Source: Acidobacteriota bacterium | Lineage (GTDB): Bacteria; Acidobacteriota; Thermoanaerobaculia; UBA5066; Gp7-AA6 | NCBI GenBank assembly: GCA_020199905.1 | Contig: JAIVJS010000001.1 | Coordinates: 61,069 to 125,068, forward strand | DNA length: 64,000 nt | Direction: 5' to 3' | Shown: positions 3,574 to 61,580 of the stretch, one piece after another | Layout of the letters: each line of letters opens with the position of its first letter | How positions within the stretch are numbered: position 1 is the first letter of the stretch | Translations under genes and position numbers: made by a program | Notes under the pieces: model-generated | Seen by the model: only the letters and a program-made list of their open reading frames with translations | Database searches by the model: none | What the model was told of the DNA's origin: nothing

Positions 3574-4024
3574 TCAGAAGAGCGGCTCCGAGATCAGCTG
3601 CTGGCGGGTCACGGAAATGCACGAGCCCGTCATCTGGCCCACCTGGCAGCGGAGCTGGATCGCGACGAAAGTCCCGGACGTGTTGACGAGTCGCAGGCTC
3701 GCCCCCTGATAAGCGTTGACCGCCTGGATCCCGGTGGGCGCGGAGACGATCGTCCACTGCGCCGCCGACAGCTCGTTGTTGCAGACGGGCGTCCCGTTGC
3801 CACACGCTCGCCGCCATCGAGGCCGGCGTCGCCGTCACGGTGCTCACCACCGGGATGACGCCCATGACCTCGAAAATGCGGTTCGCCGCGATATTGAAAT
3901 CGACTCCGGTCGTCGCCGGGTTGGGAGACCCCGTGACCGCCGACGAGAGGGCGAACGTCGTGGCGGACGCCGTCGCCGAAACCAGGATCACGAGCGTCGC
4001 AAGACCGATAAGACGCAATTTCAT
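3574..4024 (-). pseudogene. Frameshifted paralog of the small secreted Cys-containing protein at 60925-61407
   Basis: The N-terminal part (signal peptide MKLRLIGLATLVILVSATASA...EVMGVIPVVSTVTATPASMAAS) is in the frame of track ORF 3542..4024. The homologous C-terminal part (ACGNGTPVCNNELSAAQWTIVSAPTGIQAVNAYQGASLRLVNTSGTFVAIQLRCQVGQMTGSCISVTRQQLISEPLF*) is in the next frame and ends at 3574-3576. The switch lies near 3795-3800. About 8 codons present in the paralog are also missing here. Confidence 0.55.
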
Positions 4025-4115
4025 CGCCTGTTCTCCTTATGAGCTCGAATCGGGAAGTCTGAGGCGTTACCGGTGGGTGGAGTCTAGCCGGGCCGCGTAA
4101 ACCGCGCCGCGCGAG

Positions 4116-4517
4116 TCAGCGGCGGCGGTGATCGACGAAGCGGATGCTGTTGCGGTCCGCGTCCTTCACGTACAGCTCGCGGGCCCCCCAGGTCTGGTCC
4201 ATCGGCCCGCTGTCGATCGGGACTCCCCGGGCGACGAGCTCGGCGTGTACCGCGTCCACGTCGTCGACTTCCAGATGCACGACGCCGCCCGAGACGCCAT
4301 CCCCCGAAAAGGACGACAGGTGCAGCCAGACGCCGTCGCGCGATACGCCGAAATAGCACGGGTCGGGTTTCGCCTCGTCGAGACGGTGCGCGAATCCCTT
4401 TCGAAAGCCGAGCCGGCCGCAATAGAACTCCGCCGCCGCCGCGGAGCTCTCGACGTGCAGGACCGGGATCGCGGCCAGCACCGACGCGCGTTTCGGCGGG
4501 TCTGTCCGGCCGGTCAC
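4116..4517 (-). CDS. VOC family protein (glyoxalase / bleomycin-resistance fold)
   Basis: 133 aa with the typical VOC pattern: HVESSAAAAEFYCGRLGF...VHLEVDDVDAVHAELVARGV. Confidence 0.7.
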   Translation of the reverse strand: MTGRTDPPKRASVLAAIPVLHVESSAAAAEFYCGRLGFRKGFAHRLDEAKPDPCYFGVSRDGVWLHLSSFSGDGVSGGVVHLEVDDVDAVHAELVARGVPIDSGPMDQTWGARELYVKDADRNSIRFVDHRRR

Positions 4518-4520
4518 CGG

Positions 4521-4994
4521 TCAATCGCCATCGGGTTCGGGAGGCGGTTCCAGCTTCTCGAGCTTCAGAAAGACGATCGACGGCTGGAGTCCCCTCGACC
4601 GCGATGAGCACTGGGAGACGGTGCTCACGGCGCGCCGAACCAGGTCGGAAAGGTCCAGCGTCGTTTTCAGGCTGGCGTTTCCGGGCCGGGAGTGGGCGGT
4701 CTTGTCGCGCACGCAGTCGAGCGTGTTGAAAGATTCGGGCCCGAGAGGGACGATCGCGGTCCGATAGCCGGGCATTGCCACGACGATCTCCATCTCCGTG
4801 ACGCCCGACGGGACGACGATCGCCCCGGGCGTGGTGATCTGCTGCCGCCCGGCCGTTGCCGTCGCGCCGGAAGGGTTCGTGATGACGGGGACTCTCTGCG
4901 CGGAGTCGGAGGACCGCGTCGAGGCACACCCGAGGAAGAGGAGAGCGCCGAGCGCGCCGAACGGAGAGCCTGCCCGCGACCCGCGGATGAGCAC
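4521..4994 (-). CDS. Putative lipoprotein with a PEGA-like domain
   Basis: Signal peptide with Cys (ALLFLGCAS); PEGA-like segment PSGATATAGRQQITTPGAIVVPSGVTEMEIVVAMPGYRTAIV. Confidence 0.5.
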   Translation of the reverse strand: MLIRGSRAGSPFGALGALLFLGCASTRSSDSAQRVPVITNPSGATATAGRQQITTPGAIVVPSGVTEMEIVVAMPGYRTAIVPLGPESFNTLDCVRDKTAHSRPGNASLKTTLDLSDLVRRAVSTVSQCSSRSRGLQPSIVFLKLEKLEPPPEPDGD

Positions 4995-5058
4995 GCCGGG
5001 ATTTTACGCCTCCGGCACGTTTCGGGCGCGGAGATCCGTCCCGAATGGCCGCCGAGCG

Positions 5059-7267: not shown

Positions 7268-7268
7268 C

Positions 7269-13877: not shown

Positions 13878-13998
13878 AGGGGTGAGAGGGTCGGGAATCG
13901 AGAGCCGAGCGACCAACGGGAGCAAGACGGCCGCGGTACTCCGCGGTCAACGCGCTCGGGAATAAGAGAGGAGCGGTCTTCTCCGGCCCCTGGGGCTC

Positions 13999-18631: not shown

Positions 18632-20385
18632 GCCAGCCCGCGCCGGCGCCCGTGGATCCGCTTCTCACTTCGCCGGTCAAGACGCTCCTCTCCGGGGACG
18701 TTCCCGAGGACCTCGTCTTCCCATACCCCGCGATTCCGGCGGATGAGAAGGAGACGGTTTCCGCCTTCCTGGGGTCGTTCCGCGATTTCGCGAAGGACCA
18801 CGTCGATCCGGCCCGCTTCGACCGGGAGCACGGGATCGACGCGAAGGTCGTCCGCGGTCTCGCGGATCTCGGCGCCTTTGGAATGATCATCCCGGAGGCC
18901 TACGGCGGCTACGGCTTTTCTTCGAGCGCCTATTGCCGGGTGACCGAGGAGATCGGCCGGACGGACGCATCGCTCGGCATCCTGATCGGCGGGCACCAGT
19001 CGATCGGCCTGAAGGGCCTCATCCTCTTCGGGACCGAGGAGCAGAAAAAACGGTGGCTGCCGAAGCTCGCCGCGGGCGAGATGATCGCCGCCTTCGCCCT
19101 GACGGAGCCGGAGGCAGGCTCGGATGCGGCCTCGATCCGGACGACCGCGGAGTACGACGCGGCCACGGACACGTTCGTCTTGAATGGCAGCAAGCACTGG
19201 ATCTCCAACGGCGGTTTCGCGGAGTTCTTTACCGTGTTCGCGAAAGACGTGAAGCTCGACGCGAAGGACGAGCACCGCCGCATTACGGCGTTCGTCGTCA
19301 CGAAAGACCTCGGGGGGGTCGAGCCGGGGCCCGAGGAGAAGAAGCTCGGCCTCAAGGGCTCATCCACGGTGCCGCTCGAGCTGAAGAACGTGCGCGTTCC
19401 GGGGTCCCACCTGCTCGGGGAGCGGGGACAGGGCTTCCGCATCGCCGTCGAGATCCTCAACACCGGCCGGACGTCGCTCGGCGCCGGCTGCGTCGGCGGC
19501 TCCAAGCGAATGATCGAGCTCGCGGCGCGGCAGGCGACCTCGCGCCGGCAGTTTCAGACCCGTATCGCGGATTTCGAGATCATCCGGGCGAAGTTCGCGC
19601 GCATGGTCGTCAACACGTACGCGCTCGAGTCGATGGTGTACCTGACGGCGGGTCTCGTGGACCGCGGCCTCGCGGACTACTCGGTCGAGGGCGCGTGCTG
19701 CAAGATTTTCGGCACCGAGAGCGTCTGGCAGACGATCAACGACGCCCTGCAGATCGCGGGCGGCAACGGCTTCATGGAGGAGTATCCGTACGAGCGCGCC
19801 CTGCGGGACTCGCGCATCAACATGATCTTCGAAGGAACCAACGAGATCCTGCGAGTCCTGGTCGCCCTCTCCGGAATGAAGGAGATCGGCGAGGGGCTCC
19901 AGGAGGTCGGCCGCGCGTTGAAGGCCCCGCTCTCGTCGTTCGGGATCCTTTCCGACTACGCGGTGCGGCGCGTGCTGCGGACTCTCCCGGCGGGCCGCAT
20001 CAGCCGGGTGGCGCCTGCCCTGGCCCCGGAGGGCGAGGCCGTCGCGAGATACGCCATGGCGTGCGGGAGAGCCGTCGAGACGATCCTTCGCAAGTACGGC
20101 AAGGGCGTCCTGACGAAGGAGTACCACCACGAACGGCTGGCGAACGTGGGGATCGACCTCTACGCTTCGGTCGCGGTCCTCTCCCGCGCGACGTCGTCGA
20201 TCGAGGCGAAAGGCGAGGAGAAGTCGGCGGAAGAAATCCGGCTCGCCAGGATCTTCATCCGCGGAGCGCGCCACCGCGTCGTCGGGCAGTTGAAGGACAT
20301 AGATCGGAACCTCGACCCGGACGTCACCGCCGTTTCCGAGACGGCGTACGGCGCGCTCGGGTACGCCTTCCCGTACTGGGAGTGA
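18628..20385 (+). CDS. Acyl-CoA dehydrogenase family protein (about 586 aa, with C-terminal extension)
   Basis: The ATG overlaps the upstream stop (ATGA at 18628-18631). ACAD motifs present (LTEPEAGSDAASIRTTA...; QIAGGNGFMEEYPYERALRDSRI). Confidence 0.85.
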   Translation: MSQPAPAPVDPLLTSPVKTLLSGDVPEDLVFPYPAIPADEKETVSAFLGSFRDFAKDHVDPARFDREHGIDAKVVRGLADLGAFGMIIPEAYGGYGFSSSAYCRVTEEIGRTDASLGILIGGHQSIGLKGLILFGTEEQKKRWLPKLAAGEMIAAFALTEPEAGSDAASIRTTAEYDAATDTFVLNGSKHWISNGGFAEFFTVFAKDVKLDAKDEHRRITAFVVTKDLGGVEPGPEEKKLGLKGSSTVPLELKNVRVPGSHLLGERGQGFRIAVEILNTGRTSLGAGCVGGSKRMIELAARQATSRRQFQTRIADFEIIRAKFARMVVNTYALESMVYLTAGLVDRGLADYSVEGACCKIFGTESVWQTINDALQIAGGNGFMEEYPYERALRDSRINMIFEGTNEILRVLVALSGMKEIGEGLQEVGRALKAPLSSFGILSDYAVRRVLRTLPAGRISRVAPALAPEGEAVARYAMACGRAVETILRKYGKGVLTKEYHHERLANVGIDLYASVAVLSRATSSIEAKGEEKSAEEIRLARIFIRGARHRVVGQLKDIDRNLDPDVTAVSETAYGALGYAFPYWE

Positions 20386-21526: not shown

Positions 21527-21630
21527 GAAGAAGTCGAGAGTCAGGAGATCAGAGTCGAGAGTAGAAGACCCGCCGGCGCGCCTGCGGATCCCTCCGGACT
21601 CTGAGCTCTCGACTCTCGACTGCCCCGTGC
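21527..21630 (+). repeat. Inverted pair of heptamer arrays (..GAGTCGAGAG.. / ..CTCTCGACTC..) around a GC-rich core, followed by a T-tract; candidate large terminator hairpin
   Basis: gagtcgagagtagaag ... ggactctgagctctcgactctcgactg ... cctcttttttcc; a 10-bp perfect inverted repeat flanked by further heptamers. Confidence 0.45.
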
Positions 21631-21639: not shown

Positions 21640-22100
21640 CCTCGCTCTGGCTGTTCGTCGTGGCGTTTCTCGGGCTCGTCTCACGCCCGGGCCGGCCGTG
21701 CTCTACATCACAACCCGCTCGCTGAGCCAGGGCCGCGCCCGGCCGGCTTTTTCTCGGCGCTCGGCGTCGCGGTCGGATCCGTTGTCCACGTCGCGGCGGC
21801 GACGCTCGGTCTCTCCGCTCTTCTCGTCTTCTCCGCGCTCGCCTTCGAGCTCGTCCGATTCCTCGCAGCGGGTTACCTCATCTGGCTCGGCGTCCGGCGG
21901 ATCCTCTCGAAGGACGGCGACGAGAGCGCCGCCTCGCTGCCGAAGCGCCCGCTTGCCGCCGTGTTCCGCCAGGGGGCCGTCGTGAATCTGCTGAACCCGA
22001 AGACGACGCTCTTCTACACGATCGCGGCGGGTTCGCTCGGCGGCCGGCTGCTTGACCGGCCAGGGATTCTTTCCCGCGGCCGCTGCGTTTCAGACAGTGT
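21640..22100 (+). pseudogene. LysE/RhtB-family translocator remnant: frameshifted, no start codon, C-terminally truncated
   Basis: Across three frames the translation reads LFVVAFLGLVS / PGPAVLYITTRSLSQGR / ALGVAVGSVVHVAAATLGLSALLVFSALAFELVRFLAAGYLIWLGVRRILS...FRQGAVVNLLNPKTTLFY. This matches RhtB (LSPGSG...LKWAGAAYLIWLGIQQWR...FQRAVFVNLTNPKSIVF). After the NPK motif similarity decays, and the convergent ABC gene ends at 22183. Confidence 0.55.
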
Positions 22101-22182
22101 GTCTATCCGGCTCGGCCCGGCCACGGCCTTCGGAGCGAGCGGGACGCTAAGAGTCAAGAGTTGAGGATCGAACTCTCGCCTC

Positions 22183-22950
22183 TCAACTCCTGACGCTCAA
22201 CTTCTCCTCCAGCAGCTCCTTCGTCGCCGCGTGCTGCGGGTTCGTCAGCACGGACGACGGATCGCCTTCCTCCGCGACCCGGCCCGCCGCGAGGACGACC
22301 ACGCGGTCGGCGAATCGGCGCGCGAACTCCGCGTCGTGGGTCGTGACGAGAAGGCCGCGGCCCTCCCCGGCCAGCGAGCGGAGGACTTCTCCGAGGGCTC
22401 CGCGGCGCGCCGGATCCAGGGAGGCGGTGGGCTCATCCATCAGGAGAAGCGGCGGGTCGACGGCGAGAGCGCGGGCGATCGCGACCCGCTGCGCTTCACC
22501 GCCGGAAAGCTCGCGGGGGTACGCCGAGGCCCGGTGCCCGACGCCGAGAGACTCGAGGAGATCGACGCTCCGGGCGCGGGCTTCCTCGGCCGTGCGCCCA
22601 TGCGCGTAGACAGGAGCGAGTGTGGTATTGGCGAGGGCGGTCAGATGCTCGAACAGGGCATGCGCCTGAAAGACCATGCCGGCGCGCCGGCGCAGCTCCT
22701 TGAGGCGCGACTCCGGCGGCACGGGCCCGGGACGAAGCTCGAAGCCCTCCACGCCGATCCTCCCTCCGTCGAAGGCCTCGAGAGCGACGGCGGCCCGGAG
22801 CACGGTCGTTTTGCCGGAGCCCGAGAGCCCCATCAGGACGCAGACCTCGCCGCGGTCCACCGTCAGGTCGACCCCGTCGAGCACGCGACGGTCTCCGCGC
22901 ACGAGGCGCAGGTTGCGGACTTCGAGCAGGGCGTTTCGGCCTGCGCTCAC
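22183..22950 (-). CDS. Amino-acid ABC transporter ATP-binding protein
   Basis: Walker A GLSGSGKTT; ABC signature LSGGEAQRVAIARAL; Walker B LLLMDEPT. The GTG start overlaps the permease stop (GTGA). Confidence 0.8.
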   Translation of the reverse strand: MSAGRNALLEVRNLRLVRGDRRVLDGVDLTVDRGEVCVLMGLSGSGKTTVLRAAVALEAFDGGRIGVEGFELRPGPVPPESRLKELRRRAGMVFQAHALFEHLTALANTTLAPVYAHGRTAEEARARSVDLLESLGVGHRASAYPRELSGGEAQRVAIARALAVDPPLLLMDEPTASLDPARRGALGEVLRSLAGEGRGLLVTTHDAEFARRFADRVVVLAAGRVAEEGDPSSVLTNPQHAATKELLEEKLSVRS

Positions 22951-33308: not shown

Positions 33309-33447
33309 ATGTCGTCGAACCCCACTCCCGTACGTGTTCCGGAGCGTCAGCCCGCGTCGAATCTGCCCGGTACGTCAAATTCGTCTTCAAAAGAGAACGA
33401 GAAGGCCTGGCGGCCGATTCGCATCGTCAGCAGCGTCCCGACCTAGG
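33309..33447 (+). CDS. Small hydrophilic ORF (46 aa) with a strong Shine-Dalgarno
   Basis: AGGAG 7 nt upstream of the ATG (aaacAGGAGatccatcATG). Encodes MSSNPTPVRVPERQPASNLPGTSNSSSKENEKAWRPIRIVSSVPT. Below the track's length cutoff. Lies at the edge of the lower-GC islet. Confidence 0.25.
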
Positions 33448-40060: not shown

Positions 40061-40100
40061 GGAGGCGGGGAACCCCGCCCCGCGTTCCCGGAAGATTCTG

Positions 40101-41255
40101 ATGCCCGCCCGCCGCCGCGTCGTCGTCCTCGTCTGCGACGGGCTCGGAGTCGGAGCCGCTCCCGACGCCGCCGCCTACGGCGACACGGACAGCAACACGC
40201 TCGGGCACGCGCTCGCCGCGCACCCGGCGCCGCTGCCGAACCTCGAGCGCCTGGGATTGCTCGCGCTCATCGGGAAGGGCGCGCCGAGCGGAGCGCGCGG
40301 GCGCCTCCGGGAGCTCTCCGCCGGCAAGGACACCACCACCGGGCACTGGGAAATGATGGGCCTCGTCACGGAACGGCCCTTTCCGCTGTATCCCGACGGT
40401 TTTCCCGACGAGATCGTCCGCCCCTTCGAAGCCTATGCGGGCAAGCGCGTTCTCGGCAACAAAGCCGCTTCCGGCACGGAGATCCTGAAGGAGCTCGGCC
40501 CCGAGCACCAGGCCACGGGCCGTCCCATCCTCTACACGTCGGGGGACTCGGTATTCCAGGTGGCGTGTCACGAGGACGTCTGGCCACCCGAGCGGCTCTG
40601 GGAGCTCTGCCGCCACGCGCGCGGGCTCCTGACCGGCGCCCACAACGTGGGCCGCGTCATCGCGCGCCCCTTCACGGGCGGACCCGGCGCGTACGCCCGG
40701 ACGGCCAACCGCCGCGACTTCACCGTCGCTCCCACCGGGCAGACCTGGCTCGACCGGCTGGTCGCGGCCGGGCGCCACGTGTACGGGATCGGGAAGATCG
40801 TGGACATCTTCTCGGGCCGCGGGATCTCCGACTCGGTCCATACCGGATCGGACGCGGAGGGCGTTTCGAAGACCGTCTCGGCCCTCGCCGAAGGGCGGGC
40901 CGACTGCGTGTTCACGAACCTCGTGGACTTCGACAGCAAGTATGGGCATCGCAACGATCCGGCGGGATTCGTGCGGAACCTGGCTTCGCTGGACGCGCTC
41001 GTTCCAGAAATTCTGGCGGCGCTCGGAGCCGGCGATCTCTTCCTGCTGACCGCGGACCACGGCTGCGAGACGACCGACGCGTCGACCGATCACACGCGCG
41101 AGCTCGTCCCGCTTCTCGCCGCCGGACCCGCCGTGCGGGTAGAGGCCGATCTCGGCGTCCGCGAGGGCTTCTGCGATCTCGCCGCGACGGCGGGCGAGTG
41201 GCTCGGGGTCGGCGCGCCTCGAGGCGCCAGCGTGCTCGGCCTTCTCCTGCGCTGA
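40101..41255 (+). CDS. deoB: Phosphopentomutase
   Basis: ATG at 40101. Metal-binding motifs VLVCDGLGVG; TTGHWEMMG; LLTADHGCE. Confidence 0.85.
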   Translation: MPARRRVVVLVCDGLGVGAAPDAAAYGDTDSNTLGHALAAHPAPLPNLERLGLLALIGKGAPSGARGRLRELSAGKDTTTGHWEMMGLVTERPFPLYPDGFPDEIVRPFEAYAGKRVLGNKAASGTEILKELGPEHQATGRPILYTSGDSVFQVACHEDVWPPERLWELCRHARGLLTGAHNVGRVIARPFTGGPGAYARTANRRDFTVAPTGQTWLDRLVAAGRHVYGIGKIVDIFSGRGISDSVHTGSDAEGVSKTVSALAEGRADCVFTNLVDFDSKYGHRNDPAGFVRNLASLDALVPEILAALGAGDLFLLTADHGCETTDASTDHTRELVPLLAAGPAVRVEADLGVREGFCDLAATAGEWLGVGAPRGASVLGLLLR

Positions 41256-41262
41256 GCTGACC

Positions 41263-42420
41263 GTGCTCCACGCGCTTCTCGCCGGCTGCGCGGCGTGCTC
41301 GGTCTTCTGGCTCGTCGCGCTGCTCGTGAATCTGGCGGCGCTCCCGCGGCTTTCCCGCCAGGCGCCCGCGTCCGGCAACCTGCCTTTTGTCTCGATCGTC
41401 GTCCCGGCGCGCAACGAGGAGCGCGCGATCGGCTCGGCCCTGCGATCCCTTCTCGCACAGGACTATCCGGAATCCAGGCGGGAGGTGATCGTCGTTGACG
41501 ACCGCTCGACGGACGGCACCCGGCGGGTTCTCGCCGGCCTCGAGAACGATCCCGGCCTGAAAATCATCGACGGGGCCGAACCGCCTCCCGGCTGGCTCGG
41601 CAAACCCCACGCTCTCTTTCAGGGCTCCCGCGCCGCGCGCGGCGAGTGGCTCCTCTTCGTCGACGCCGACGTCCGGTACCGTCCCGATGCGGTTTCGCGC
41701 GCGATGGGGTACGCCCTTCGAGAGCGAACGGACTTCGCGGCGCTCCTGCCGCACCTGGAGACCTCCGGTTTCTGGGAGAGCGTGTTGATGCCCAATCTCC
41801 TGTGCGCCGTCTTCTTCGGCCCGGCCGTCCTCGCCAACCGCCGGTGGCCCCGATGGCTCGCCGCCGGCGGGGGAGCGGGCAACCTCATTCGCCGGGCGGC
41901 CTACGACGCGATCGGAGGGCACGAATCGCTGCGCGCGTCGGTCATCGACGACGTCCGCCTCGCCGTCATGTCCAAGCAGGCGGGATTTGCGACGCGCACT
42001 GTGCTCGCGCACGAGCTCGTCGCGGTGCGGATGTACCACGGCTTTCGGGAGGTCTGGGACGGGTTCACCAAGAACATCGCCTACGCCCTGGGGGGCGTCA
42101 CCGGCTTCGCGTTTGCGGGAATGTCGCTGGTGTGGACCGCGGTGGCGCTGTCTCCGCCCGCGGTCCTCATGGCGGCAGCCTTCGGGGCCTCCCTTCCCGC
42201 GGCCGACGTGGCCCTGGCCGGAGCCTCCTTCGGCGTGCTCGTCTTCGCGCGCGCGCTTCTCTCGAAAGCGTTGCATGACCCGGTCTGGCCGTCGCTGACC
42301 CATCCCCTGATGGCGGCGGTGTGGGCCGGCCTTCTCGTGCGCTCCGTCTACCAGCGCCTCGTCCGCCGCTCGGTCCCGTGGCGGGGGCGGCACTTCGACG
42401 CGAGGAAGGCGGGGTTTTAG
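41263..42420 (+). CDS. Family 2 glycosyltransferase, membrane-bound
   Basis: GTG start 8 nt after the deoB stop. GT-A fold motifs (VSIVVPARNEE; DDRSTDGT; FVDADV) and C-terminal TM helices. Confidence 0.7.
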   Translation: MLHALLAGCAACSVFWLVALLVNLAALPRLSRQAPASGNLPFVSIVVPARNEERAIGSALRSLLAQDYPESRREVIVVDDRSTDGTRRVLAGLENDPGLKIIDGAEPPPGWLGKPHALFQGSRAARGEWLLFVDADVRYRPDAVSRAMGYALRERTDFAALLPHLETSGFWESVLMPNLLCAVFFGPAVLANRRWPRWLAAGGGAGNLIRRAAYDAIGGHESLRASVIDDVRLAVMSKQAGFATRTVLAHELVAVRMYHGFREVWDGFTKNIAYALGGVTGFAFAGMSLVWTAVALSPPAVLMAAAFGASLPAADVALAGASFGVLVFARALLSKALHDPVWPSLTHPLMAAVWAGLLVRSVYQRLVRRSVPWRGRHFDARKAGF

Positions 42421-42424
42421 CGAG

Positions 42425-42490
42425 TTTTCCATCTTCAGTTTTCAGTTTTCACTGTTGGCTCAGAGGTGACGACTGATAACTGACAACGGA
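42425..42490 (+). repeat. Heptamer array (TTTTCAG / TGACAAC types) after the GT2 stop
   Basis: ttttcca tcttcag ttttcag ttttcac tgttggc tcagagg tgacgac tgataac tgacaac. Confidence 0.55.
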
Positions 42491-42574
42491 TTACTCCTTC
42501 TGCGCTAACATCCCGCCCGCCATCAACGTCCCTCTGCCCCCTCGCCCGCGAAAAACGCGTCGGAGGAGGAAATC

Positions 42575-43665
42575 ATGCGCTGGATAGGCCTCGTCGGCAT
42601 GGCGGTTGTGCTCGGGATGCCTTTCTCTTCAGCTGGCTCGCCGGCCCGATGAACGACCTGGGCAGCAAGACCGGGCTCCCGATCGGCGGATTCATTTTTG
42701 CCTTCAAGGTCCTGCCGATCATCATCTTCATCTGCTCCTTCTTCTCGCTTCTGTACTACTTCGGCATCATCCAGATCATCGTCAAGGGCATGGCGTGGGT
42801 GATGCAGAAAACGATGAAGGTGTCGGGCGCCGAGGCGCTCTGCGTCGCAGCGAACGTCTTCATCGGCCAGACGGAGGCGCCGGTCCTGATTGCCCCGTAC
42901 ATCCCGGCCATGACGCACTCCGAGCTTCTGACGATGATGACGGGCGGCATGGCGCACGTCTCCGGCGCCGTGATGCTCGCGTACGTGACCATGGGCGCCC
43001 CATTGAAATACCTGATTACCGCTTCGGTCATGGCCGCACCGGGAACGTTCCTGATCGCCAAGATCCTCTGGCCCGAGACCGAGACGCCGGTGACGATGGG
43101 CACCGTGAAGATGCACGTCGAGAAGACCAGCGCCAACTTCATCGACGCGGCCGCGTCCGGCGCCACCCAGGGGATGTCCCTCGTGCTGAACATCTCCGCG
43201 ATGCTGATCGCGTTCGTGGCCCTGATCGCGATGCTGAACGGGTTCCTGGGGTGGATCGGCAGCTTCTGGGGCCAGCCCACGTTCGCGCTGCAGACGATCT
43301 TCGGCTGGGTCCTCGGGCCGCTGGCATTCATCCTCGGCACGCCACCCCAGGACATCGACAAGGTCGGCAACCTGATCGCCAACAAGACGGTGATCAACGA
43401 GTTCTTCGCGTTTTCGATGATGAAGGACATGGTGGGTCAGCTCTCCGAGAAGGGAAAGCTGATCGCCACGTTCGCGCTGTGCGGGTTCGCCAATTTCTCG
43501 TCGATTGGAATCCAGATCGGCGGCATCGGAGGGCTCGCTCCGACTCGCAAGTCCGACATCGCCCGGCTCGGATTTCGCGCCCTCCTCGCCGGCTCGCTCG
43601 TGAGCTTCATGACGGCGTCCATCGCCGGCCTGATCTGGGAAGTCGCGGGCGCGCCCGTCAAATGA
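42575..43665 (+). pseudogene. nupC: NupC/CNT-family nucleoside transporter with N-terminal lesion (frameshift and about 50-residue internal deletion)
   Basis: AGGAGGAAATC-ATG at 42575 encodes MRWIGLVGMAVVLGMPFSSAGSPAR*, a NupC-like N-terminus. A 1-nt shift gives ...DAFLFSWLAGP and continues into track ORF 42649..43665 (MNDLGSKTGLPIGGFIF...), which aligns from about residue 75 of E. coli NupC. The segment equivalent to NupC residues 24-72 is absent. Confidence 0.6.
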
Positions 43666-44507
43666 AGGCGCCTGCCCTCATGGCGTCCCTGGACGCCGCC
43701 GCCGCCCGCATCCGCAGGACCGCGGCGGCCGAGCCTCTCATCGGCCTCGTCCTCGGCTCGGGCCTCGGGGCGTTTGCCGAGCGCCTGACGGACCGGACGG
43801 CGATTCCGTACACGGAGATTCCGCGGTTCCCCGCTTCGACCGGGGTGGTCGGCCATGCCGGCGAGCTCGTACTCGGAAGGGTCGGTAAGACGCCCGTCGC
43901 GGTGCTGTCGGGGCGTGTCCACTTCTACGAGGGCCACTCCATGGCGGACGTGGTCTTTCCGGCGCGCGTCCTCGCGCGCCTGGGCGTGAAGGCCGTCGTC
44001 CTGACAAACGCGGCCGGCGGCGTGCGCCTGACTTTCAAACCCGGCGACCTCATGGTCATCACCGATCACATCAACTTTTTCGGCCACCACCCGCTGATCG
44101 GACGCAACGAGGAGAAGCTCGGGCCGCGCTTTCCCGACATGAGCTTCATCTACGACCCCGAGCTGCGCCGGATCCTGAAGGCCACGGGACGCGCGGAGAA
44201 AATCCCGCTGCGCGAGGGCGTCTACCTCGGCACCTCGGGGCCCTCGTATGAAACCCCGGCGGAGATCCGGGCGTTCCGCCGGATGGGCGCCGACGCCGTC
44301 GGCATGTCCACCGTTCCGGAGGCGATCGCCCTGCGCCACGCCGGCGTGCGCGTCGCCGGCATCTCGACCATCACCAACATGGCGGCCGGGATCCTCGAGC
44401 AGCCGCTCGAGCATGGCGAGGTCCTCGAGACGACGCGCCGCGTGGGCGATCGGTTCGTGCGCCTCCTGACGAAAGCGATTCCCCGCCTCGCGAAGGCGCT
44501 GAAATGA
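43662..44507 (+). CDS. Purine nucleoside phosphorylase (PNP/MTAP family, trimeric type)
   Basis: The ATG overlaps the nupC stop (ATGA). PNP motifs (LVLGSGLG; GSTGVVGHAGELVLG; MSTVPEAIAL). Confidence 0.85.
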   Translation: MKAPALMASLDAAAARIRRTAAAEPLIGLVLGSGLGAFAERLTDRTAIPYTEIPRFPASTGVVGHAGELVLGRVGKTPVAVLSGRVHFYEGHSMADVVFPARVLARLGVKAVVLTNAAGGVRLTFKPGDLMVITDHINFFGHHPLIGRNEEKLGPRFPDMSFIYDPELRRILKATGRAEKIPLREGVYLGTSGPSYETPAEIRAFRRMGADAVGMSTVPEAIALRHAGVRVAGISTITNMAAGILEQPLEHGEVLETTRRVGDRFVRLLTKAIPRLAKALK

Positions 44508-44902
44508 GCGGCGCTCCGGGAAACCAGGAGGACCGGCTCGTCGAAGCCGCCGCGGCCTATCGCCGCAACGCGGTCTCGAACCGGAGCGGGTTCTCCGTCG
44601 GCGCGGCCATCGAGGACGGGAACGGCCGGATCTGGGGCGGCTGCAACGTCGAGAACAGCACGTACGGGCTGACGGTCTGTGCCGAACGCGTGGCGATCTG
44701 GAAGGCGCTCTCGGAGGGCATCCGCTCCTTTCGCGCCGTCGCGGTCGTGACGGGAGCCGACGAGCCCACGCCGCCTTGCGGTGCGTGCCGGCAGATACTG
44801 TGGGAGTTCGCCGGAGACGTTCCCGTCGTGATGGCCACGGAGGGCGGCAAGCGCAAGCGGCTCCAGCTCGCGGCCCTCTTTCCGGAGCCCTTCGACTTCT
44901 GA
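44504..44902 (+). CDS. cdd: Cytidine deaminase
   Basis: CAERVAI and PCGACRQ zinc-binding motifs. 132 aa. The start overlaps the PNP stop. Confidence 0.85.
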   Translation: MSGAPGNQEDRLVEAAAAYRRNAVSNRSGFSVGAAIEDGNGRIWGGCNVENSTYGLTVCAERVAIWKALSEGIRSFRAVAVVTGADEPTPPCGACRQILWEFAGDVPVVMATEGGKRKRLQLAALFPEPFDF

Positions 44903-46404
44903 TGCACCCGACCGGCCCGGGACGGCACCCTCTCTTTGTCACCGCGATCCTCTGCGCCTGCGCGCTGGTTCTTGGGGGGGCCGCGCCCCGCCGCAAACCG
45001 AAGCCGGCCGCGAGCGAGCGCTCCGCGTCCGCGGGCGCCGCCGCGGACCTTCTCGTGGTCGGGGGCCGGGTCGTGACGATGGACGCGTCTTTTTCGGTGA
45101 TCGAAGACGGCGGGCTTTTCCTCTCGGGCGGAAAGATCGTCGCCGTCGGGCGGTCGGCGGACCTGAAATCTCAATACCAGGGCAAGCCCGTCTGGGACGC
45201 GCAGGGCCGCATCCTCATGCCCGGCCTCGTCAACACGCACGGCCACGCCGCGATGACCCTCCTTCGCGGCCTCGCCGACGATCTGACGCTCGATAAGTGG
45301 CTCACGGAGCACATCTTTCCCGCCGAAGCGAAGAACGTCTCGCCGGAGTTCGTGTACGACGGAACGCTCCTCGCGTGTCTCGAGATGATCGAGGGCGGGA
45401 CGACTACGTTCGCCGACATGTATTACTTCGAGTCGGAGGCGGCGCGCGCGGTGGATCGAGCCGGGCTGCGGGGGGTCCTGGGAGAGACCTTCATCGACTT
45501 TCCGGTGCCCGACCACAAGGACCTTCCCGCCACGCTGGCCGTGATGAAGGCCTTCGCGGCGAAATGGAAATCGCATCCGCGGATCGTGCCGGCGGCGGCT
45601 CCGCACGCGCCGTACACCTGCTCGAAGGAGACGCTCGTCGCGGCGCGCGATTTCGCCCTCGCGGAAAACATCCCGCTGCTGATTCACGTCGCCGAGACCC
45701 GCAAGGAGGTCGACGACGCGCGCAAGGCCTGGCAGCAGACGCCGTTCATGCGGCTGGCGTCCGTCGGTTTCTTCGATCCCGGTGCCGGCGGCCGGCGCGT
45801 CCCGATCCTCGCCGCTCACGGCGTCTGGATGGACGAGGGGGATATCGCGATCGCGCGCCAGTACGGGATCGCCCTGTCGCACAACCCGGAGTCGAACATG
45901 AAGCTCGCGTCCGGGACGGCGGACGTTCCCGGATGGCAGAAGGCCGGGCTCGTCTGGGGGCTCGGAACCGACGGGCCGGCCGGGTCGAACAACGATCTCT
46001 CGATGTTCGAGGCGATGGACTTCGCCGGGAAGCTCGCGAAGGTCTCGAAGATGGATCCGACAGTCCTTCCGGCGCGCGACCTCGTCGCCGCAGCCACGAG
46101 AGGCGGCGCGAAGGCGCTCGGCCTTGAAGCGAAGATCGGGTCTCTGGAGCCCGGAAAGCAGGCCGACTTCATCGCGGTGCGCACGAAGACGGCTCACGAG
46201 CAGCCCTTCGACGACCCGTATTCCGCCCTCGTGTACTCGATCAAGACCTCGGACGTCTCGGACGTCTGGGTGGACGGCCGGCGCCTGCTCGCCGACGGGC
46301 GGTCCACGACTCTGGACGCCGCCGCGATCCTGGAGAAGGCCGCCTCGTGGCGCCGCCGGGTCGATGCGTCGCTCGCCTCGCCGAAAGGAGAGACACCGAA
46401 GTGA
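44902..46404 (+). CDS. Amidohydrolase-family protein (nucleobase/nucleoside deaminase-like) with N-terminal signal/anchor
   Basis: ATG at 44902 (TGATG overlap with cdd). Metal-binding motifs (VNTHGHAAMT; HVAE; HGVWMDE). Hydrophobic N-terminus FVTAILCACALVLGGAA. Confidence 0.75.
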   Translation: MHPTGPGRHPLFVTAILCACALVLGGAAPRRKPKPAASERSASAGAAADLLVVGGRVVTMDASFSVIEDGGLFLSGGKIVAVGRSADLKSQYQGKPVWDAQGRILMPGLVNTHGHAAMTLLRGLADDLTLDKWLTEHIFPAEAKNVSPEFVYDGTLLACLEMIEGGTTTFADMYYFESEAARAVDRAGLRGVLGETFIDFPVPDHKDLPATLAVMKAFAAKWKSHPRIVPAAAPHAPYTCSKETLVAARDFALAENIPLLIHVAETRKEVDDARKAWQQTPFMRLASVGFFDPGAGGRRVPILAAHGVWMDEGDIAIARQYGIALSHNPESNMKLASGTADVPGWQKAGLVWGLGTDGPAGSNNDLSMFEAMDFAGKLAKVSKMDPTVLPARDLVAAATRGGAKALGLEAKIGSLEPGKQADFIAVRTKTAHEQPFDDPYSALVYSIKTSDVSDVWVDGRRLLADGRSTTLDAAAILEKAASWRRRVDASLASPKGETPK

Positions 46405-47705
46405 AGAGCGTTTACGAGATCCTGCGCGCCAAGCGCGACGGGAAGGAGCTTTCCCGGGAGGAGATCGCCTTTCTCGTCGCCGGGGTCGTCTCGGGAGAGG
46501 TACCGGACTACCAGGCCGCCGCGTTCCTCATGGCGGCCGTCATCCGAGGGCTCTCGACGCCGGAGATGGCTGCGCTCACCGAGGCCATGCGCGACTCCGG
46601 CGACTCGTGGGACCTCTCCGATCTCGCGCCCGTCGTCGACAAGCACTCGACCGGTGGAGTCGGGGACAAGGCGACGCTCGTTCTCGCCCCGCTCGTGGCC
46701 GCCGCGGGAGGACGCGTGGGGATGATGTCCGGACGCGGGCTCGGGCACACCGGCGGAACGCTCGACAAGCTCGCCGCGATCCCTGGATTTCGGACCGATC
46801 TCGACCTGCCGCGAGTCCGCCGGGCGCTCACCGAGGTCGGAGCGGCGCTCTTCGCGCAGACGGACACGGTCGCCCCCGCGGACCGCAAGCTCTACGCGCT
46901 GCGCGACGTCACGGGGACGGTCGAGTCGCTCGGCCTCATCGTTGCCTCGATCCTGTCGAAGAAGCTCGCATCCGGGACGACCGGCATCGTCTTCGACGTA
47001 AAAACCGGCAACGGGGCGTTTCTGAAGACCGTGCCCGAATCGCGGGCGCTCGGCCGGGCGCTCGTCGACACCTCGCGCGCCGCGGGGCGCGAGGCCAGCG
47101 GATGGATCACCGACATGTCGCGGCCTCTCGGACGCGCCGTCGGCAACGCGCTCGAGGCCGAGGAGTCGATCCTCGTCCTGCGCAACGAGGGTCCGCCGGC
47201 GGTCCGCGAGCTCTGCCTCGTGCTCGGCGCGGACATGCTGCGCTTCGCCGAGCCCGCGCTCTCCGAGCCGGACGCCCGCCGGCGGCTCGAAGAGGCGTTC
47301 ACGTCCGGGAAGGCCGCCGAGCGTTTCGCGAAGCTGGTCGAGTTCCAGGGGGGCGACCCCCGCGTCGTCGAAGACCCGTCGATCCTGCCTCAGCCGAAAT
47401 CCAGGATCCCCGCGGCCGCGCCCCGGTCGGGATTCGTCCGGTCGATCCAGACCGAGAAGATGGGATTCCTGTCGATCGACATCGGCTGCGGACGGCGCAA
47501 GCGGGAGGACGACATCGACTTCGCCGCGGGGTTCCTGGTCGAGAAGACGGTGGGGGACCGCGTCGAAAAAGGAGAGCCGCTCGCCATCCTCTGCCTCGGG
47601 GAGCGCCCCGCGCCGAGACCGTCCTTCGAGCGGGAGCTCGCGGACCTCTTCGAGATCGGCGACGAACCCGCCGCGCCGCCGGCTCTCGCCATAGAGAAGC
47701 TGTAG
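46401..47705 (+). CDS. Thymidine / pyrimidine-nucleoside phosphorylase
   Basis: GTG at 46401 overlapping the upstream stop (GTGA). Motifs (VDKHSTGGVGDK; GHTGGTLDKL). Confidence 0.85.
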   Translation: MKSVYEILRAKRDGKELSREEIAFLVAGVVSGEVPDYQAAAFLMAAVIRGLSTPEMAALTEAMRDSGDSWDLSDLAPVVDKHSTGGVGDKATLVLAPLVAAAGGRVGMMSGRGLGHTGGTLDKLAAIPGFRTDLDLPRVRRALTEVGAALFAQTDTVAPADRKLYALRDVTGTVESLGLIVASILSKKLASGTTGIVFDVKTGNGAFLKTVPESRALGRALVDTSRAAGREASGWITDMSRPLGRAVGNALEAEESILVLRNEGPPAVRELCLVLGADMLRFAEPALSEPDARRRLEEAFTSGKAAERFAKLVEFQGGDPRVVEDPSILPQPKSRIPAAAPRSGFVRSIQTEKMGFLSIDIGCGRRKREDDIDFAAGFLVEKTVGDRVEKGEPLAILCLGERPAPRPSFERELADLFEIGDEPAAPPALAIEKL

Positions 47706-57080: not shown

Positions 57081-57537
57081 CTGTTCTGAGTTCTCAGTCG
57101 TTCCCCCGCATCCGAGGAGCACGGGGTTGAAATCTCACCGTTTCCCCGCGCCGCCCTTCCCCTTTCGCCTCCAGGGGCCATTTGAGTGAAAAATGACCAG
57201 AATTGACGCGCATTCCGACTAGAATTCGCCAACGGCCTCACGACGATTCCTCCCGCGGCGCCTCGTCGCCCTCCTGTTCCTGCTCCTCTCCGGCGGGCCG
57301 CTCTCGCTTCGCGCGGAGCGCAAGACGCCGCCCGGCGCCGCGGCGGCGCAGCGCGAGCCGGAAGCGGAAAGCGAGAAGGAGGACGGCCCCGGGCAGATTC
57401 GCGAACGCGTTCGCCTCTATCTGAAGAGACATTCCGAGAACGGCCGGATCGATCCGGAGCGCCGCCTCGAAAAGGTCGCCGCCGAATACACGCGGTTTCG
57501 GGACGAGGAACGGCGCGGCGGCCGCGCGAGGCTGTCC

Positions 57538-60500
57538 GTGGGAGGCTCGACGTGGGTGTCTCTCGGTCCGACGAACGGCGCGGGCCGCATGACGGGGATC
57601 TCTCCTCACCCGACCGACGTCGGAACCGTGCTCGCCGGAGCGGCGGGCGGGGGAGTCTGGAAGACGACGGACGGCGGGGCGAGCTGGGTTTCGCTGACGG
57701 ATGGTTTGAACGACCTGTCGGTGGGAGCGGTCGCCTACGCGCCGTCCTCACCCAACGTCGTCTACCTCGGAACCGGGGAGGGGAGCTACGCGGTCGACTT
57801 CATCCCCGGGATCGGGCTTCTGAAGTCCACGGACGGGGGCGCCACCTGGACCTTGCCCTCCTCGGTCCTGGCGTCACGCTTCCATCGGATCAACGTGCAC
57901 CCGACGAACCCGAACGAGCTGCTGGTGGGGACGAGCCGCGGAGCGCTGCGATCCACCGACGGCGGGGCGAGCTGGGAGACGGTGATCTCGCCGACCGCTT
58001 ACGGGGACGTTCCGGAGATCCTGCGGGACCCGACCGATCCCCGGAACCTCTTCGCCACCACGTGGTGCATCTCGGGAGGGTGCACGTTCAAGACGGCGCA
58101 CGTCCTGAAGTCGACGGACGGAGGCGCCACCTGGACGGACCGCAGCTTCGGTCTGCCGACCGCGAACCCGTCGGACTTCGCCTACGAGCGCACCGCCCTC
58201 GCGCTCTCTCCTTCGAACACGTCGGTCCTCTACGCCGCGCGATCGGTCCGGCCGGCGGCGGGCACGATCATTTCCCACGTCTACAGGACCGTGGACGGCG
58301 GCGCTACATGGACGGACCTGCCCTCGGTGAGCGCACGGAACAGCCGGTATCTCGCCGACCAGTCCTGGTACAACAACACGATCATCGTCTCTCCAACCGA
58401 CTCCAACACGGTAATCGCCGGCGGGACGAGATACCTGCGCTCGACCGACGGCGGAGCCAACTTCACCCCCGTGCTCGACGGGGAGGTCCACGTGGACGCG
58501 CACGACCTGCGGTACCAGGGATCGACGCTCTGGTTCGCCAATGACGGGGGCGTGTGGACGAGCGTCGACGACGGGATCTCCTCGACCGACCGGAACAACG
58601 GGCTCGTGACGCGCCAGTACTACGCGCTCGCGATCGACCCCATCAACCGCAACCGGATTCTCGCCGGCGCGCAGGACAACGGCACCAATCAGCGGATGGA
58701 CGGGGGAGGGACGGTCTGGCGCCCGGTCATCGGCTCCGACGGCTTCGAGTGCGTCGTGAATCCCTTCTCGCCGGCGATCGCCTGGGGGAGCACGCAGCAG
58801 GGACAGATCTTCCGGAGCCGGAACGTCGGCGCCTCGACGGATCCCTCGTTCCAGTCCGTGACCCCGCCCTACGACGCCAACGAGGAGACACCGTTCCTGA
58901 CGGTCCTCCGCAACGACCCGCGCGCCCCTCAGACGATCTATACCGGCTCTTACCGTCTCTGGCGCTCGCGCGACGGCGGCACCGTGTGGGTCCCCCTCCC
59001 CACGACGACCACAGACGGCTCGGCCTGGCCCAGGTCCACGACCGTGACGTCGCTGGCGCTCTCGCGCACGGATCCTCTTCTGATCCTGGTCGGCAAGGAA
59101 AACGGCATCTACCGGTCCGGTGACGGAGGCCAGACCTGGACACCGGCGACCGGAGTTCCGGATCGGGTGCTGACCAATCTCGAGATCGACCCGACCAACT
59201 CCGGCATCGCCTACGCCACCTTCTCCGCGATCACCTTGCCGAGCGTGTACCGGAGCGTCGACGGCGGGTTGACCTGGGCGCCGAGCGCGTCCGGCCTTCC
59301 GGCATTTCCCTCGCAGGTGATCCGCGTCGATCCGACCGATTCCAACGTCGTGTTCGTCGGCACCGACGTCGGCGTCTTCCGTTCGCCGGACCGGGGGGCG
59401 ACGTGGAGCCGTTTCGGCACAGGCCTTCCGAGCTCCTCGGTCCACGACCTGCAGGTGCTGGACGACGGTTCCATGCTCCGTGTCGCGACGCACGGGCGCG
59501 GAATCTGGGAGCTGCAGGTGCCGGCGACCGGAAACAATCCGCCCGTCCCGACCGTCGTCGCTCCCGCGTCGTCGATCGCCGTCCCGCTCGGAACGACGGT
59601 GTCCTTCTCCGGGACGGTGACGGATCCGGATCCTGGAGACACCGCCTCCGGAACCTGGTTCTTCCCGGACACGTCCGAGAACATCCCGCTGCCGGGCGGG
59701 GCGGGCACGGTGGCACACACGTTCCGGCGTGCGGGCTCCTTCCCGGTCGCGCTCTCGGCTCGCGATTCCCGCGGCGCTCTCGGCACCGCCGTCGTTCAGG
59801 TGTCCGTGACGGACAGCGGAGACGCGTGCGCGACGCCGGTCGTGATCCCATCCAACGGTCCCTTCCCGTACGCCGTCCTCGCCAGCAGCGAGTCCGCGAC
59901 GACGGAGGCAACGGATCCTTCGCCCTCGTGCTGGGTGAGCGCCAAGGCGGCGTCGCTCTGGTTCGAGTACACGCCCCCGGCCGACGGCCAGTATGAGATC
60001 TCGACGTGCGGGAGCGCACCCGACACCGTTCTCTCCGTTTTCACCGGCGCCGCGTGCGGTCCGTACACGCCCGTTTCCGGCGGGTGCAATGACGACGCCC
60101 CCGCGTCCTCCGGATGCGGAACACAGGCTTCCCTCGTGACCGTGACCGGCAGGGCGGGACAGACGTTCCGGATCCAGGCCACCGGTTTCGATGAGTCCAG
60201 TCTCGGCTCGTTCGCCCTGAACGTGAGGCCGATTTCCGTGCCGGCGTCTTCGCCCCGGGTCGGCGGAGTGAACGCCGGCGAGGGTCCGGCGCCCGGCGGG
60301 ACCACGGTGCTGATCACGGGCAGCGGATTCCAGAACGATGCCACGGTCTCTTTCGGCGGCGTCGCGGGCACCGACGTCGTCGTCCTCGCGCCGACGCTTC
60401 TCTCCGTGCGAACGCCGGCGCACGCGCCCGGAGACGTGGACGTCTCGGTGACCTCGGGCGGCGGGACCGGGACGCTCTCCCGCGCGTTCGCGTTCACCCC

Positions 60501-60852
60501 GTACACCCCGGTGGCCTGCGCGCCGGGCGATTCGACGCTCTGCATGAACGGCGGCCGCTTTCGCGCTCAGGTCGTCTGGCGTGTTCCGACGCAGAACGCG
60601 GCCGGCCTCGCCTCGGCGGTCGCCCTGACCGGCGATACGGGCTATTTCTGGTTCTTCTCGTCGAACAACATCGAGCTCGTCGTGAAAGTCGTCGACGGCC
60701 GAGGCTTCAATGGCAAATTCTGGGTGTTCTACGGCGCTCTCTCGAACGTGGAGTACACCCTGACCGTCACGGACATCGTGACGGGAGCGGTCCGCGTCTA
60801 CACGAATCCCAGCGGGTTACTGTCGAGCGTCGCGGACACCTCCGCGTTCTAG
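57538..60852 (+). CDS. Large extracellular multidomain protein: about 10 BNR/Asp-box (SxDxGxTW) repeats, PKD domain, PPC-like domain, IPT/TIG domain, and a conserved C-terminal domain of unknown function
   Basis: Repeated TTDGGASW / STDGGATW / TVDGGATW motifs. PKD-like VTDPDPGDTASGTWFFPD...GSFPVALSARDSRGALG. IPT-like TTVLITGSGFQNDATVSFGGVAGTDVVVLAPTLLSVRTPAHAPGDVDVSV. The track start is GTG 57538. An in-frame ATG (57193) and a Tat-like signal peptide lie upstream, separated from the ORF by a TAG at 57220-57222 (see findings). Confidence 0.8.
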   Translation: MGGSTWVSLGPTNGAGRMTGISPHPTDVGTVLAGAAGGGVWKTTDGGASWVSLTDGLNDLSVGAVAYAPSSPNVVYLGTGEGSYAVDFIPGIGLLKSTDGGATWTLPSSVLASRFHRINVHPTNPNELLVGTSRGALRSTDGGASWETVISPTAYGDVPEILRDPTDPRNLFATTWCISGGCTFKTAHVLKSTDGGATWTDRSFGLPTANPSDFAYERTALALSPSNTSVLYAARSVRPAAGTIISHVYRTVDGGATWTDLPSVSARNSRYLADQSWYNNTIIVSPTDSNTVIAGGTRYLRSTDGGANFTPVLDGEVHVDAHDLRYQGSTLWFANDGGVWTSVDDGISSTDRNNGLVTRQYYALAIDPINRNRILAGAQDNGTNQRMDGGGTVWRPVIGSDGFECVVNPFSPAIAWGSTQQGQIFRSRNVGASTDPSFQSVTPPYDANEETPFLTVLRNDPRAPQTIYTGSYRLWRSRDGGTVWVPLPTTTTDGSAWPRSTTVTSLALSRTDPLLILVGKENGIYRSGDGGQTWTPATGVPDRVLTNLEIDPTNSGIAYATFSAITLPSVYRSVDGGLTWAPSASGLPAFPSQVIRVDPTDSNVVFVGTDVGVFRSPDRGATWSRFGTGLPSSSVHDLQVLDDGSMLRVATHGRGIWELQVPATGNNPPVPTVVAPASSIAVPLGTTVSFSGTVTDPDPGDTASGTWFFPDTSENIPLPGGAGTVAHTFRRAGSFPVALSARDSRGALGTAVVQVSVTDSGDACATPVVIPSNGPFPYAVLASSESATTEATDPSPSCWVSAKAASLWFEYTPPADGQYEISTCGSAPDTVLSVFTGAACGPYTPVSGGCNDDAPASSGCGTQASLVTVTGRAGQTFRIQATGFDESSLGSFALNVRPISVPASSPRVGGVNAGEGPAPGGTTVLITGSGFQNDATVSFGGVAGTDVVVLAPTLLSVRTPAHAPGDVDVSVTSGGGTGTLSRAFAFTPYTPVACAPGDSTLCMNGGRFRAQVVWRVPTQNAAGLASAVALTGDTGYFWFFSSNNIELVVKVVDGRGFNGKFWVFYGALSNVEYTLTVTDIVTGAVRVYTNPSGLLSSVADTSAF

Positions 60853-60924
60853 ATCCTCCAGCGGGAACCGGGCCCTCCCATCGCCGGCGCGTCTGTGAAA
60901 GGATCTCTTCAAAAGGAGATCCCC

Positions 60925-61407
60925 ATGAAATTCCGTTCCGGCGCCCCGGCGGTCCTGGTCCTCCTCGCGCTCCTCGTCTCGTCAACGACCCTCGCCAGCA
61001 CGGGCGTCATCTCCGTCACGATCACGGGGACCACGACTCCGCCGCCGAACCCGCTGACTCTCAGTTTTTTCAATAACACCACGCTGGAGGTGATGGCGGC
61101 GCTCCCGGTCGTCAGCACGGTGACGGGCAGCCCTGCTTCGATCGCGGCTTCCCTGAACATGGGAACGACCCTTTTCAACACCTGCGGCAGCACGGCGTGC
61201 AGCGGCGATCTCTGGGCGGGGCAGTGGACGATCGTTTCTGCTCCGACGGGGATACAGGCGGTGGCCGCGTATCAGGGATCTTCGATCAGGCTCGTCAACA
61301 ATTCGGGCTCGAGCGTCAACCTCACCCTGCGTTGTCAGGTGGGGAACATGACCGGCTCCTGCATCTTTCTCATCCGCATCACGCCGATCAGCGACCCCCT
61401 GTTCTGA
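60925..61407 (+). CDS. Small secreted Thr/Ser-rich protein with four conserved Cys; intact member of a paralog family
   Basis: ATG at 60925 with AAGGAG 7 nt upstream (the track's earlier start at 60895 lies inside a hairpin). Signal peptide MKFRSGAPAVLVLLALLVSSTTLAS. Cys pairs at NTCGSTAC and RCQVGNMTGSC. Paralogous to 3574-4024 and to the remnant at 61521. Confidence 0.65.
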   Translation: MKFRSGAPAVLVLLALLVSSTTLASTGVISVTITGTTTPPPNPLTLSFFNNTTLEVMAALPVVSTVTGSPASIAASLNMGTTLFNTCGSTACSGDLWAGQWTIVSAPTGIQAVAAYQGSSIRLVNNSGSSVNLTLRCQVGNMTGSCIFLIRITPISDPLF

Positions 61408-61520
61408 GAGGCCCGTCCCTTCGCGCGTTTCGGAACGAGGAACGCGACGAGCGCGACGTCCCTGGATGCGGTTCCGATCCCTCCGTGACAGGATCCACGG
61501 AAAGGGAGGAGCTCACGAAA

Positions 61521-61580
61521 ATGCGTCCCGGCGTCCTCGCTGTCGTTGCACTCTTCGCCTCCACGACCGCCCCTGGCTGA
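61521..61580 (+). pseudogene. Signal-peptide-only remnant (19 codons) of the small secreted protein family
   Basis: AAGGGAGGAG 8 nt upstream of the ATG. Encodes MRPGVLAVVALFASTTAPG then TGA, resembling the signal peptide of the neighbouring paralog. Nothing homologous follows. Confidence 0.35.

Follow-up and report, generated by a model that had tools for sequence, protein, structure and literature searches.

Two old pseudogenes, two probable assembly joins and two misreadings in a cluster of apparently broken genes of an Acidobacteriota genome draft

A stretch of 64,000 nucleotides (nt) from a soil bacterium of the Acidobacteriota (assembly GCA_020199905.1, contig JAIVJS010000001.1, positions 61,069 to 125,068; the whole stretch is hereafter called the window) had been described as holding an unusually high density of disrupted genes, with six lesions of different kinds. 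By comparing it with two further assemblies of the same population and with related species, the cluster is best explained, with a probability of about 0.72, as two old pseudogenes, two local assembly or scaffolding errors and two misreadings. Four of the six lesions (L1 to L4) are present in the sequence as originally described, while the remaining two (L5 and L6) are not lesions. When the assembly-specific gaps are removed, two real pseudogenes are left among approximately 57 genes, which is an ordinary number, so that the claim of high density does not hold and the window gives no sign of unusual genome decay. The six features are as follows:

3577-4024, minus strand: L1, pseudogene of a secreted four-cysteine protein of about 160 amino acids (aa), with a 32-nt deletion near 3800-3804 that shifts the frame
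21640-22164, plus strand: L2, relic of a LysE-family transporter gene, matching Pfam PF01810 in three frames
35028-36408, minus strand: L3, gene for an NAD(P)-binding (NmrA-like) and DUF2867 protein, with 128 nt absent at 36323|36324 and a change of frame
42575-43665, plus strand: L4, nupC, gene for a nucleoside transporter of the CNT family, with 175 nt absent at 42618|42619 and a change of frame
57194-57234, plus strand: L5, a TAG codon (57220-57222) within a TAGAAT box (57220-57225), conserved in the clade and not a lesion
61521-61580, plus strand: L6, a chance open reading frame (ORF) of 19 codons resembling a signal peptide

Assemblies A (GCA_020200255.1, contig JAIVJB010000005.1, 86.7 kb) and B (GCA_046262695.1, contigs JBHEMI010000073.1 and 237.1, hereafter contigs 73 and 237) come from the same population as the window, and their nucleotide identity to it is 99.8-100%. 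Three related species were used as syntenic references, namely L001 for window 32-46 kb (~83% nucleotide identity), L002 for 44-64 kb (87.6%) and L092 for 12-35 kb (~87%), together with several more distant loci and a paralogue of the L1 gene located in the window itself. A scan of GTDB genomes returned relatives with amino-acid identity of at most 94%, and the homologues of the window proteins point to the Thermoanaerobaculia, Acidobacteriota, a group known almost only from metagenome-assembled genomes (MAGs).

Gaps in the DUF2867 gene and nupC

By aligning the intact protein of the same species to L3, it was found that residues 1-56 map to 36483-36316 (frame -2) and residues 97-527 to 36323-35031 (frame -3), leaving residues 57-96 of the intact allele absent from the window. 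In the case of L4, residues 1-18 of NupC map to 42575-42628 (frame 2) and residues 74-421 to 42619-43662 (frame 1). Codons 19-73 are missing, and with them the domain PF01773 (Nucleos_tra2_N). A CNT transporter is expected to carry Nucleos_tra2_N, Gate and Nucleos_tra2_C within about 420 aa, and the window sequence lacks the N domain. Among the 120 best NupC homologues, all but one measure 407-425 aa and hold PF01773, the exception being a 340-aa fragment annotated as partial. The internal deletions and frameshift originally predicted at these two genes are thus present in the window sequence, but they are not reproduced in B.

In B, the L3 gene is intact (527 aa as called; L084, 5530-7113) with the domains NAD_binding_10 and DUF2867, and PF01773 is likewise present. 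Contig 73 of B terminates exactly at the left edge of the window's nupC gap, with the sequence ...CTCGGGAT, and contig 237 begins ~10 nt past that end and carries nupC codons 19-421 intact. From 42619 on, the nupC of the window is 100% identical to the B allele over 1,044 nt. Assembly A shows gaps of another size at both loci, 89 nt at L3 and 136 nt at L4, with the same left edges as those of the window. At both L3 and L4 the window gap corresponds to the gap of A plus the next 39 nt, and this excess lies on the same contig side at the two loci, though the genes are on opposite strands. The 39-nt segments were also considered as N runs or adaptor and this was rejected, as their sequence belongs to the genes and has homologous counterparts in B and L001.

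These observations point to a joining step in which, at L3 and at L4, two contig ends would have been placed directly next to each other across a short unassembled stretch in the 5' part of the gene. Such joining would produce a draft without the 128 and 175 nt, in which the genes appear deleted and frameshifted. A fixed overlap of ~39 nt may have been trimmed off the downstream contig during joining; the exact mechanism is a guess, and a fixed offset of k-mer size would be the expected product of a step that trims an assumed overlap. The gaps are read as joins of contig ends because an abutting second deletion of exactly 39 nt, on the same contig side at two independent loci, is not credible biologically.

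The wider comparison of the three assemblies shows that the structure of the window matches neither A nor B exactly. Against A there are 29 substitutions in ~63 kb (99.95% identity) and five structural differences, all of at least 32 nt, four of which break genes. Sequence is missing from A at two control loci:

19633-19918, plus strand: acyl-CoA dehydrogenase gene, intact in the window and B; 286 nt missing from A, splitting the gene
59712-59970, plus strand: BNR gene, intact in the window and B; 259 nt missing from A, splitting the gene

A 32-nt tandem duplication with imperfect copies is found in A at 13936-13968, and a cluster of mismatches comes after it; this is the signature of two overlapping, error-prone contig ends concatenated without being merged. 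Join artefacts and contig ends are therefore found in both sister assemblies, as the end of contig 73 in B and as the duplicated join and the two control gaps in A. Two differences are private to B, a nonsense change (GAG>TAG, window position 31641) in an M16 peptidase gene and an intergenic indel of 7 nt. Over the first 42 kb, 64 substitutions distinguish the window from B. Of these, 34 are synonymous, 18 are non-synonymous, one is a stop change and 11 fall in intergenic sequence, which indicates real strain divergence under purifying selection. By our own count, their density close to the four gap sites is ~2.5 times that of the remaining sequence, which hints that the assembly breaks were caused by strain-variable sequence.

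Local assembly errors that corrupt genes, as well as duplicated or mishandled overlaps at scaffold joins, have been documented in MAGs (Chen et al., 2020, Genome Res, PMC7111523). The present case resembles those errors in that they are short, corrupt genes, are not found again in further assemblies of that population, include duplicated overlaps at joins, and occur with breaks where the population sequence is non-unique. It differs in that the joins here have no N run and show a fixed 39-nt offset which is not described in that work, where the defining criterion is absent read support. A low-quality MAG consensus had been among the explanations first offered for the whole cluster, and it is retained for L3 and L4, which are absent from B, of different size in A and located at sites of breaks or mis-joins in the other assemblies, but not for L1 and L2, which are shared by all three.

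Several points weigh against this explanation. The technical nature of the L3 and L4 joins is inferred from the comparison of assemblies, and the independence of the three assemblies is inferred solely from the substitution pattern. The L1 lesion, in turn, is judged real solely on its identity across these assemblies. Imperfect short direct repeats (CGCTTTCGCTCTT / GCCTTTCTCTT) flank the nupC junction, and the L3 junction shows a 3-nt microhomology (CGC), so the two sites also fit real slippage deletions. Moreover, the problem loci are common to the window and A, the closest pair of assemblies, which could reflect a real deletion inherited from an ancestor of both; such an ancestral event would still require an artefact in at least one assembly to explain the 39-nt difference.

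On these grounds, the 128- and 175-nt gaps may be regarded as real strain-specific deletions. The population would then hold alleles of nupC and of the DUF2867 gene that are intact (as in B), with a shorter gap (as in A) or with a longer one (as in the window), reflecting recent gene inactivation or the onset of decay in the strain. The recurrence of disrupted genes in MAGs of the clade speaks in the same direction, as exemplified by the M16 peptidase nonsense change of B and by the 907 nt of the same gene missing from L092. This reading is considered unlikely. In addition to the doubled 39-nt coincidence, the further 286- and 259-nt gaps and the duplicated join of A would represent far too many large events per substitution at 99.95% identity, the contig of B breaks at the same nucleotide as the left edge of the nupC gap, and the substitutions show purifying selection. 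The position of nupC is also relevant:

39981-47705: nucleoside-catabolism operon, with phosphopentomutase, GT2 glycosyltransferase, nupC, purine nucleoside phosphorylase, cytidine deaminase, amidohydrolase and pyrimidine nucleoside phosphorylase

This operon is otherwise intact and is syntenic in L001, and a true loss of nupC alone is unlikely for that reason. A more specific form of the same idea, in which both gaps are real and represent nested deletion alleles (intact, -89/-136 nt and -128/-175 nt) at two 5' hotspots, appears improbable. If true, it would point either to a site-directed deletion process that acts repeatedly or to strong selection for inactivating both genes in a free-living acidobacterium. 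When contigs of JGI metagenomes were scanned for the two flanks of the nupC junction, no match was returned.

Under the preferred explanation by contig joining, the organism probably has intact copies of nupC and the NAD-binding/DUF2867 gene, and caution is needed in annotating this public MAG, since inferring metabolic loss (of nucleoside uptake, for instance) from these pseudogenes would be misleading. The comparison also illustrates that sister assemblies can distinguish real pseudogenes from assembly joins without the use of reads.

Shared pseudogenes and the question of genome decay

The frameshift with a small deletion originally reported at 3574-4024 was confirmed by mapping the orthologue P0241 (160 aa, 89% identity) onto L1 in two frames. 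Residues 1-75 correspond to 4024-3800 (frame -1) and residues 85-160 to 3804-3577 (frame -2), with residues 76-84 absent. The lesion is a single out-of-frame deletion of 32 nt, with the junction GTGT|GGC, which removes ~10 residues in a conserved loop that contains a cysteine. The 160-aa ORF at 3542-4024 (minus strand) is the frameshifted reading of this gene. Since this frameshifted ORF (P0264) is called identically in A and B, the lesion predates the split of the three strains. An intact copy of the gene is found in the window:

60925-61407, plus strand: intact L1 paralogue of 160 aa, used as the in-window reference

The L1 family comprises secreted proteins of ~160 aa (P0241-P0272), with four conserved cysteines in most members, and it has no Pfam model. 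So far it is known only from Acidobacteriota MAGs, where each genome holds at least four paralogues (LC796_00335, _00590, _14470 and _15870). The loss of one copy in such a multi-copy family is unremarkable.

L2 is a genuine old pseudogene of the LysE family that is undergoing erosion. In its main frame the match to PF01810 extends over profile positions 25-126 of 193, and positions 5-126 are covered only when three frames are merged, with two small indels or frameshifts near 21683 and 21738. The relic shows neither a start codon nor a detectable C-terminal third, and the single ORF of ~190-210 aa spanning the profile that would be expected of a full LysE/RhtB exporter is absent. The multiple frameshifts noted earlier at 21640-22100 are therefore real. 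The segment is colinear with A and B with zero indels, and all of it between the flanking hairpins is absent from the related species L092. These hairpins (21532-21621 and ~22150-22195) are long and built of GAGTCGAGAG-like units, and a T run follows the first one. The species of the window is distinguished from L092 by an indel that extends from hairpin to hairpin around L2.

Errors of a homopolymer-prone platform had also been put forward, together with the statement that four of the lesions fall in GC homopolymer-rich stretches. The former is refuted and the latter is not confirmed. Near the L1, L3 and L4 junctions (within 20 nt), runs reach only 2-3 nt in length, and the 27 G/C runs of 6-7 nt found elsewhere in the window have the same length in the window, A and B. 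Over ~64 kb, the three assemblies do not show any indel of 1-2 nt among them, differing only by substitutions or by indels of at least 7 nt; the deletions of 32, 128 and 175 nt are also far from the profile of such errors, which consists of 1-2-nt indels inside runs. For indel errors of nanopore, 454 or Ion Torrent sequencing it may be argued that the two small frameshifts of L2 lie in GC-rich sequence with 3-nt runs, adjoining a T5 run. Those frameshifts are, however, identical in the three assemblies, and the probability of this explanation is close to negligible.

Ongoing genome decay was the third explanation proposed. At face value, four disrupted ORFs among ~57 genes (7%) are slightly over the usual range, and genome-wide reductive evolution, with a pseudogene-rich and host-restricted lifestyle, would account for all lesions at once. 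In free-living bacteria the ordinary share of pseudogenes is a few per cent of the genes. A decaying genome is expected to be far above this value, with its pseudogenes fixed in the lineage, and here only L1 and L2 are common to the sister assemblies. Relaxed selection and proliferation of mobile elements are expected as well. For these indicators the scope is this window and not the whole genome: no transposase family was detected among the ~65 window ORFs scanned against Pfam, and the substitutions against B are biased to synonymous changes (34 versus 18). The window has 68% GC, with a strong third-position GC and codon bias, and a rich gene content of free-living type (~57 protein-coding genes and one tRNA-Arg). 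All other genes remain syntenic with species at 83-88% nucleotide identity. Reductive evolution is thus judged highly improbable as the explanation for all lesions.

The several disrupted genes close together bear a superficial likeness to Mycobacterium leprae and to recently host-restricted symbionts. The window differs from reduction of that type in that its lesions are not fixed across the sisters, no expansion of insertion sequences is seen, selection is unrelaxed, and high GC and codon bias are retained. The closer likeness is to the ordinary pseudogenes of free-living bacteria, with no notable difference: in L1 a deletion has shifted the frame of a redundant paralogue, L2 is multiply damaged and absent from a sister species, and both are stable across strains.

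Features misread as lesions and genes without a canonical start

The nonsense codon reported at 57220 does exist as a TAG triplet. It was rejected as a nonsense mutation, given that six other species (L002, L059, L004, L067, L003 and L005) have the TAG of 57220-57222 at the corresponding site, within the TAGAAT box, and that the reading frame of the upstream ATG (57194) is not conserved, being closed or shifted in most relatives. The box appears as TACAAT in L027. All seven close relatives retain an ACG triplet (57232-57234 in the window) located 6 nt past the box, and the more distant relative L047 shows TAGAAT followed by 10 nt and TTG. A scan for sigma-70 promoters gave no promoter around the box, which, judged from its conservation only, might act as a -10 element. 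The gene that follows is:

57223-60852, plus strand: gene for a secreted BNR/sortilin-PKD-TIG protein (Pfam)

The segment 57223-57537 behaves as coding sequence, with an excess of third-position substitutions against six relatives, and the 105 codons past the TAG encode a signal peptide and a DGPxQIRER...LYLKRH block, both conserved. Within this segment of the window there is no ATG, GTG or TTG before codon 106, the first canonical start being GTG 57538, and none was found in 120 codons of the N-terminal region in three relatives. This suggests that translation of the BNR gene may be leaderless, ACG-initiated or both. The public annotation starts the gene at GTG 57538, dropping ~100 conserved residues. 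Opposite this 5' coding region, a hypothetical protein of 64 aa is called in the annotation of A and B (57238-57432, minus strand); this call is probably spurious and caused by the missing canonical start of the BNR gene.

The second case, which had been listed beside the six lesions, is a gene for an ABC transporter component:

22947-24467, minus strand: fused solute-binding and permease ABC component (SBP_bac_3 and BPD_transp_1), with the expected start region CCG ATC GTT CGG AAA and no canonical start

The fusion of these two domains is the normal architecture in the clade. The earlier observation of a missing canonical start is true in a narrow sense, since in the window no in-frame ATG, GTG or TTG lies between the stop codon of the rhomboid gene (24488) and the ABC signal peptide. 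The sister species L092 (9962-10210) likewise has no canonical ABC start past the rhomboid stop. The public annotation places the start at GTG 24581, inside the rhomboid WAHIGG motif and with a 94-nt overlap. This GTG was rejected as the true start, because, of the nine substitutions that separate the overlap from its L092 counterpart, seven leave the rhomboid protein unchanged and alter the ABC protein, so that the extension is not coding in the ABC frame. ATC 24467 is a candidate start, and its position is not conserved in L092. More distant ABC homologues start with M, L or V at ~25-35 residues ahead of a conserved WGGDAEGG motif. The missing start is a start-codon puzzle common to the sister species and not a lesion.

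Non-canonical start codons are known in bacteria, as is the case of AUU in infC. In a survey of all 64 codons in E. coli, mass spectrometry verified the initiation of GFP at ACG, and such non-canonical codons yielded ~0.1-2% of the output of AUG (bioRxiv 10.1101/063800). The likeness to the window lies in its two genes without ATG, GTG or TTG at a conserved N-terminus, for which ACG and ATC are the candidates. The difference is that here the ACG is conserved in seven species directly past a TAGAAT box, and that the case is known from sequence alone. These two genes for secreted or membrane proteins, without a canonical start across the clade, are the sole lead of some biological interest in the window.

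The truncation that had been placed at 61521-61580 corresponds to L6. This ORF sits in the 555-nt spacer between the intact L1 paralogue and lutA (61963-62727), and no homologue of it was found in L002 or in the other relatives. L6 is read as a chance mini-ORF, with no sign of being the remnant of a gene.

Remaining features of the window

The other gene sets encoded in the window, in addition to the operon described above, include:

ECF sigma and anti-sigma pairs
a fatty-acid beta-oxidation set
an amino-acid ABC transporter
lutABC
large secreted repeat proteins

The tRNA-Arg was the sole match in an Rfam scan of the window. The window and A hold an intact M16 peptidase gene (957 aa), which is damaged in L092 and B (L082/L084), either truly or through further MAG errors. 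In L092 the 907 nt missing around position 4888, equivalent to window 29801-30707, belong to its C-terminal third.

Between 32668 and 33518 there is a stretch of 850 nt without a credible gene, with a lower GC content (0.62) and a core at 33123-33344. On the strength of a 288-aa gene called in L001, a further decayed gene was considered at 32.7-33.5 kb of the window and was rejected, as the L001 protein reads as arginine-rich nonsense and the similarity is at the nucleotide level only. An Rfam scan of 32.6-33.6 kb gave no match. A block of ~220 nt within the core is 80% identical to positions 741-961 of L001, the site of the spurious 288-aa gene call, and it may represent a conserved non-coding element.

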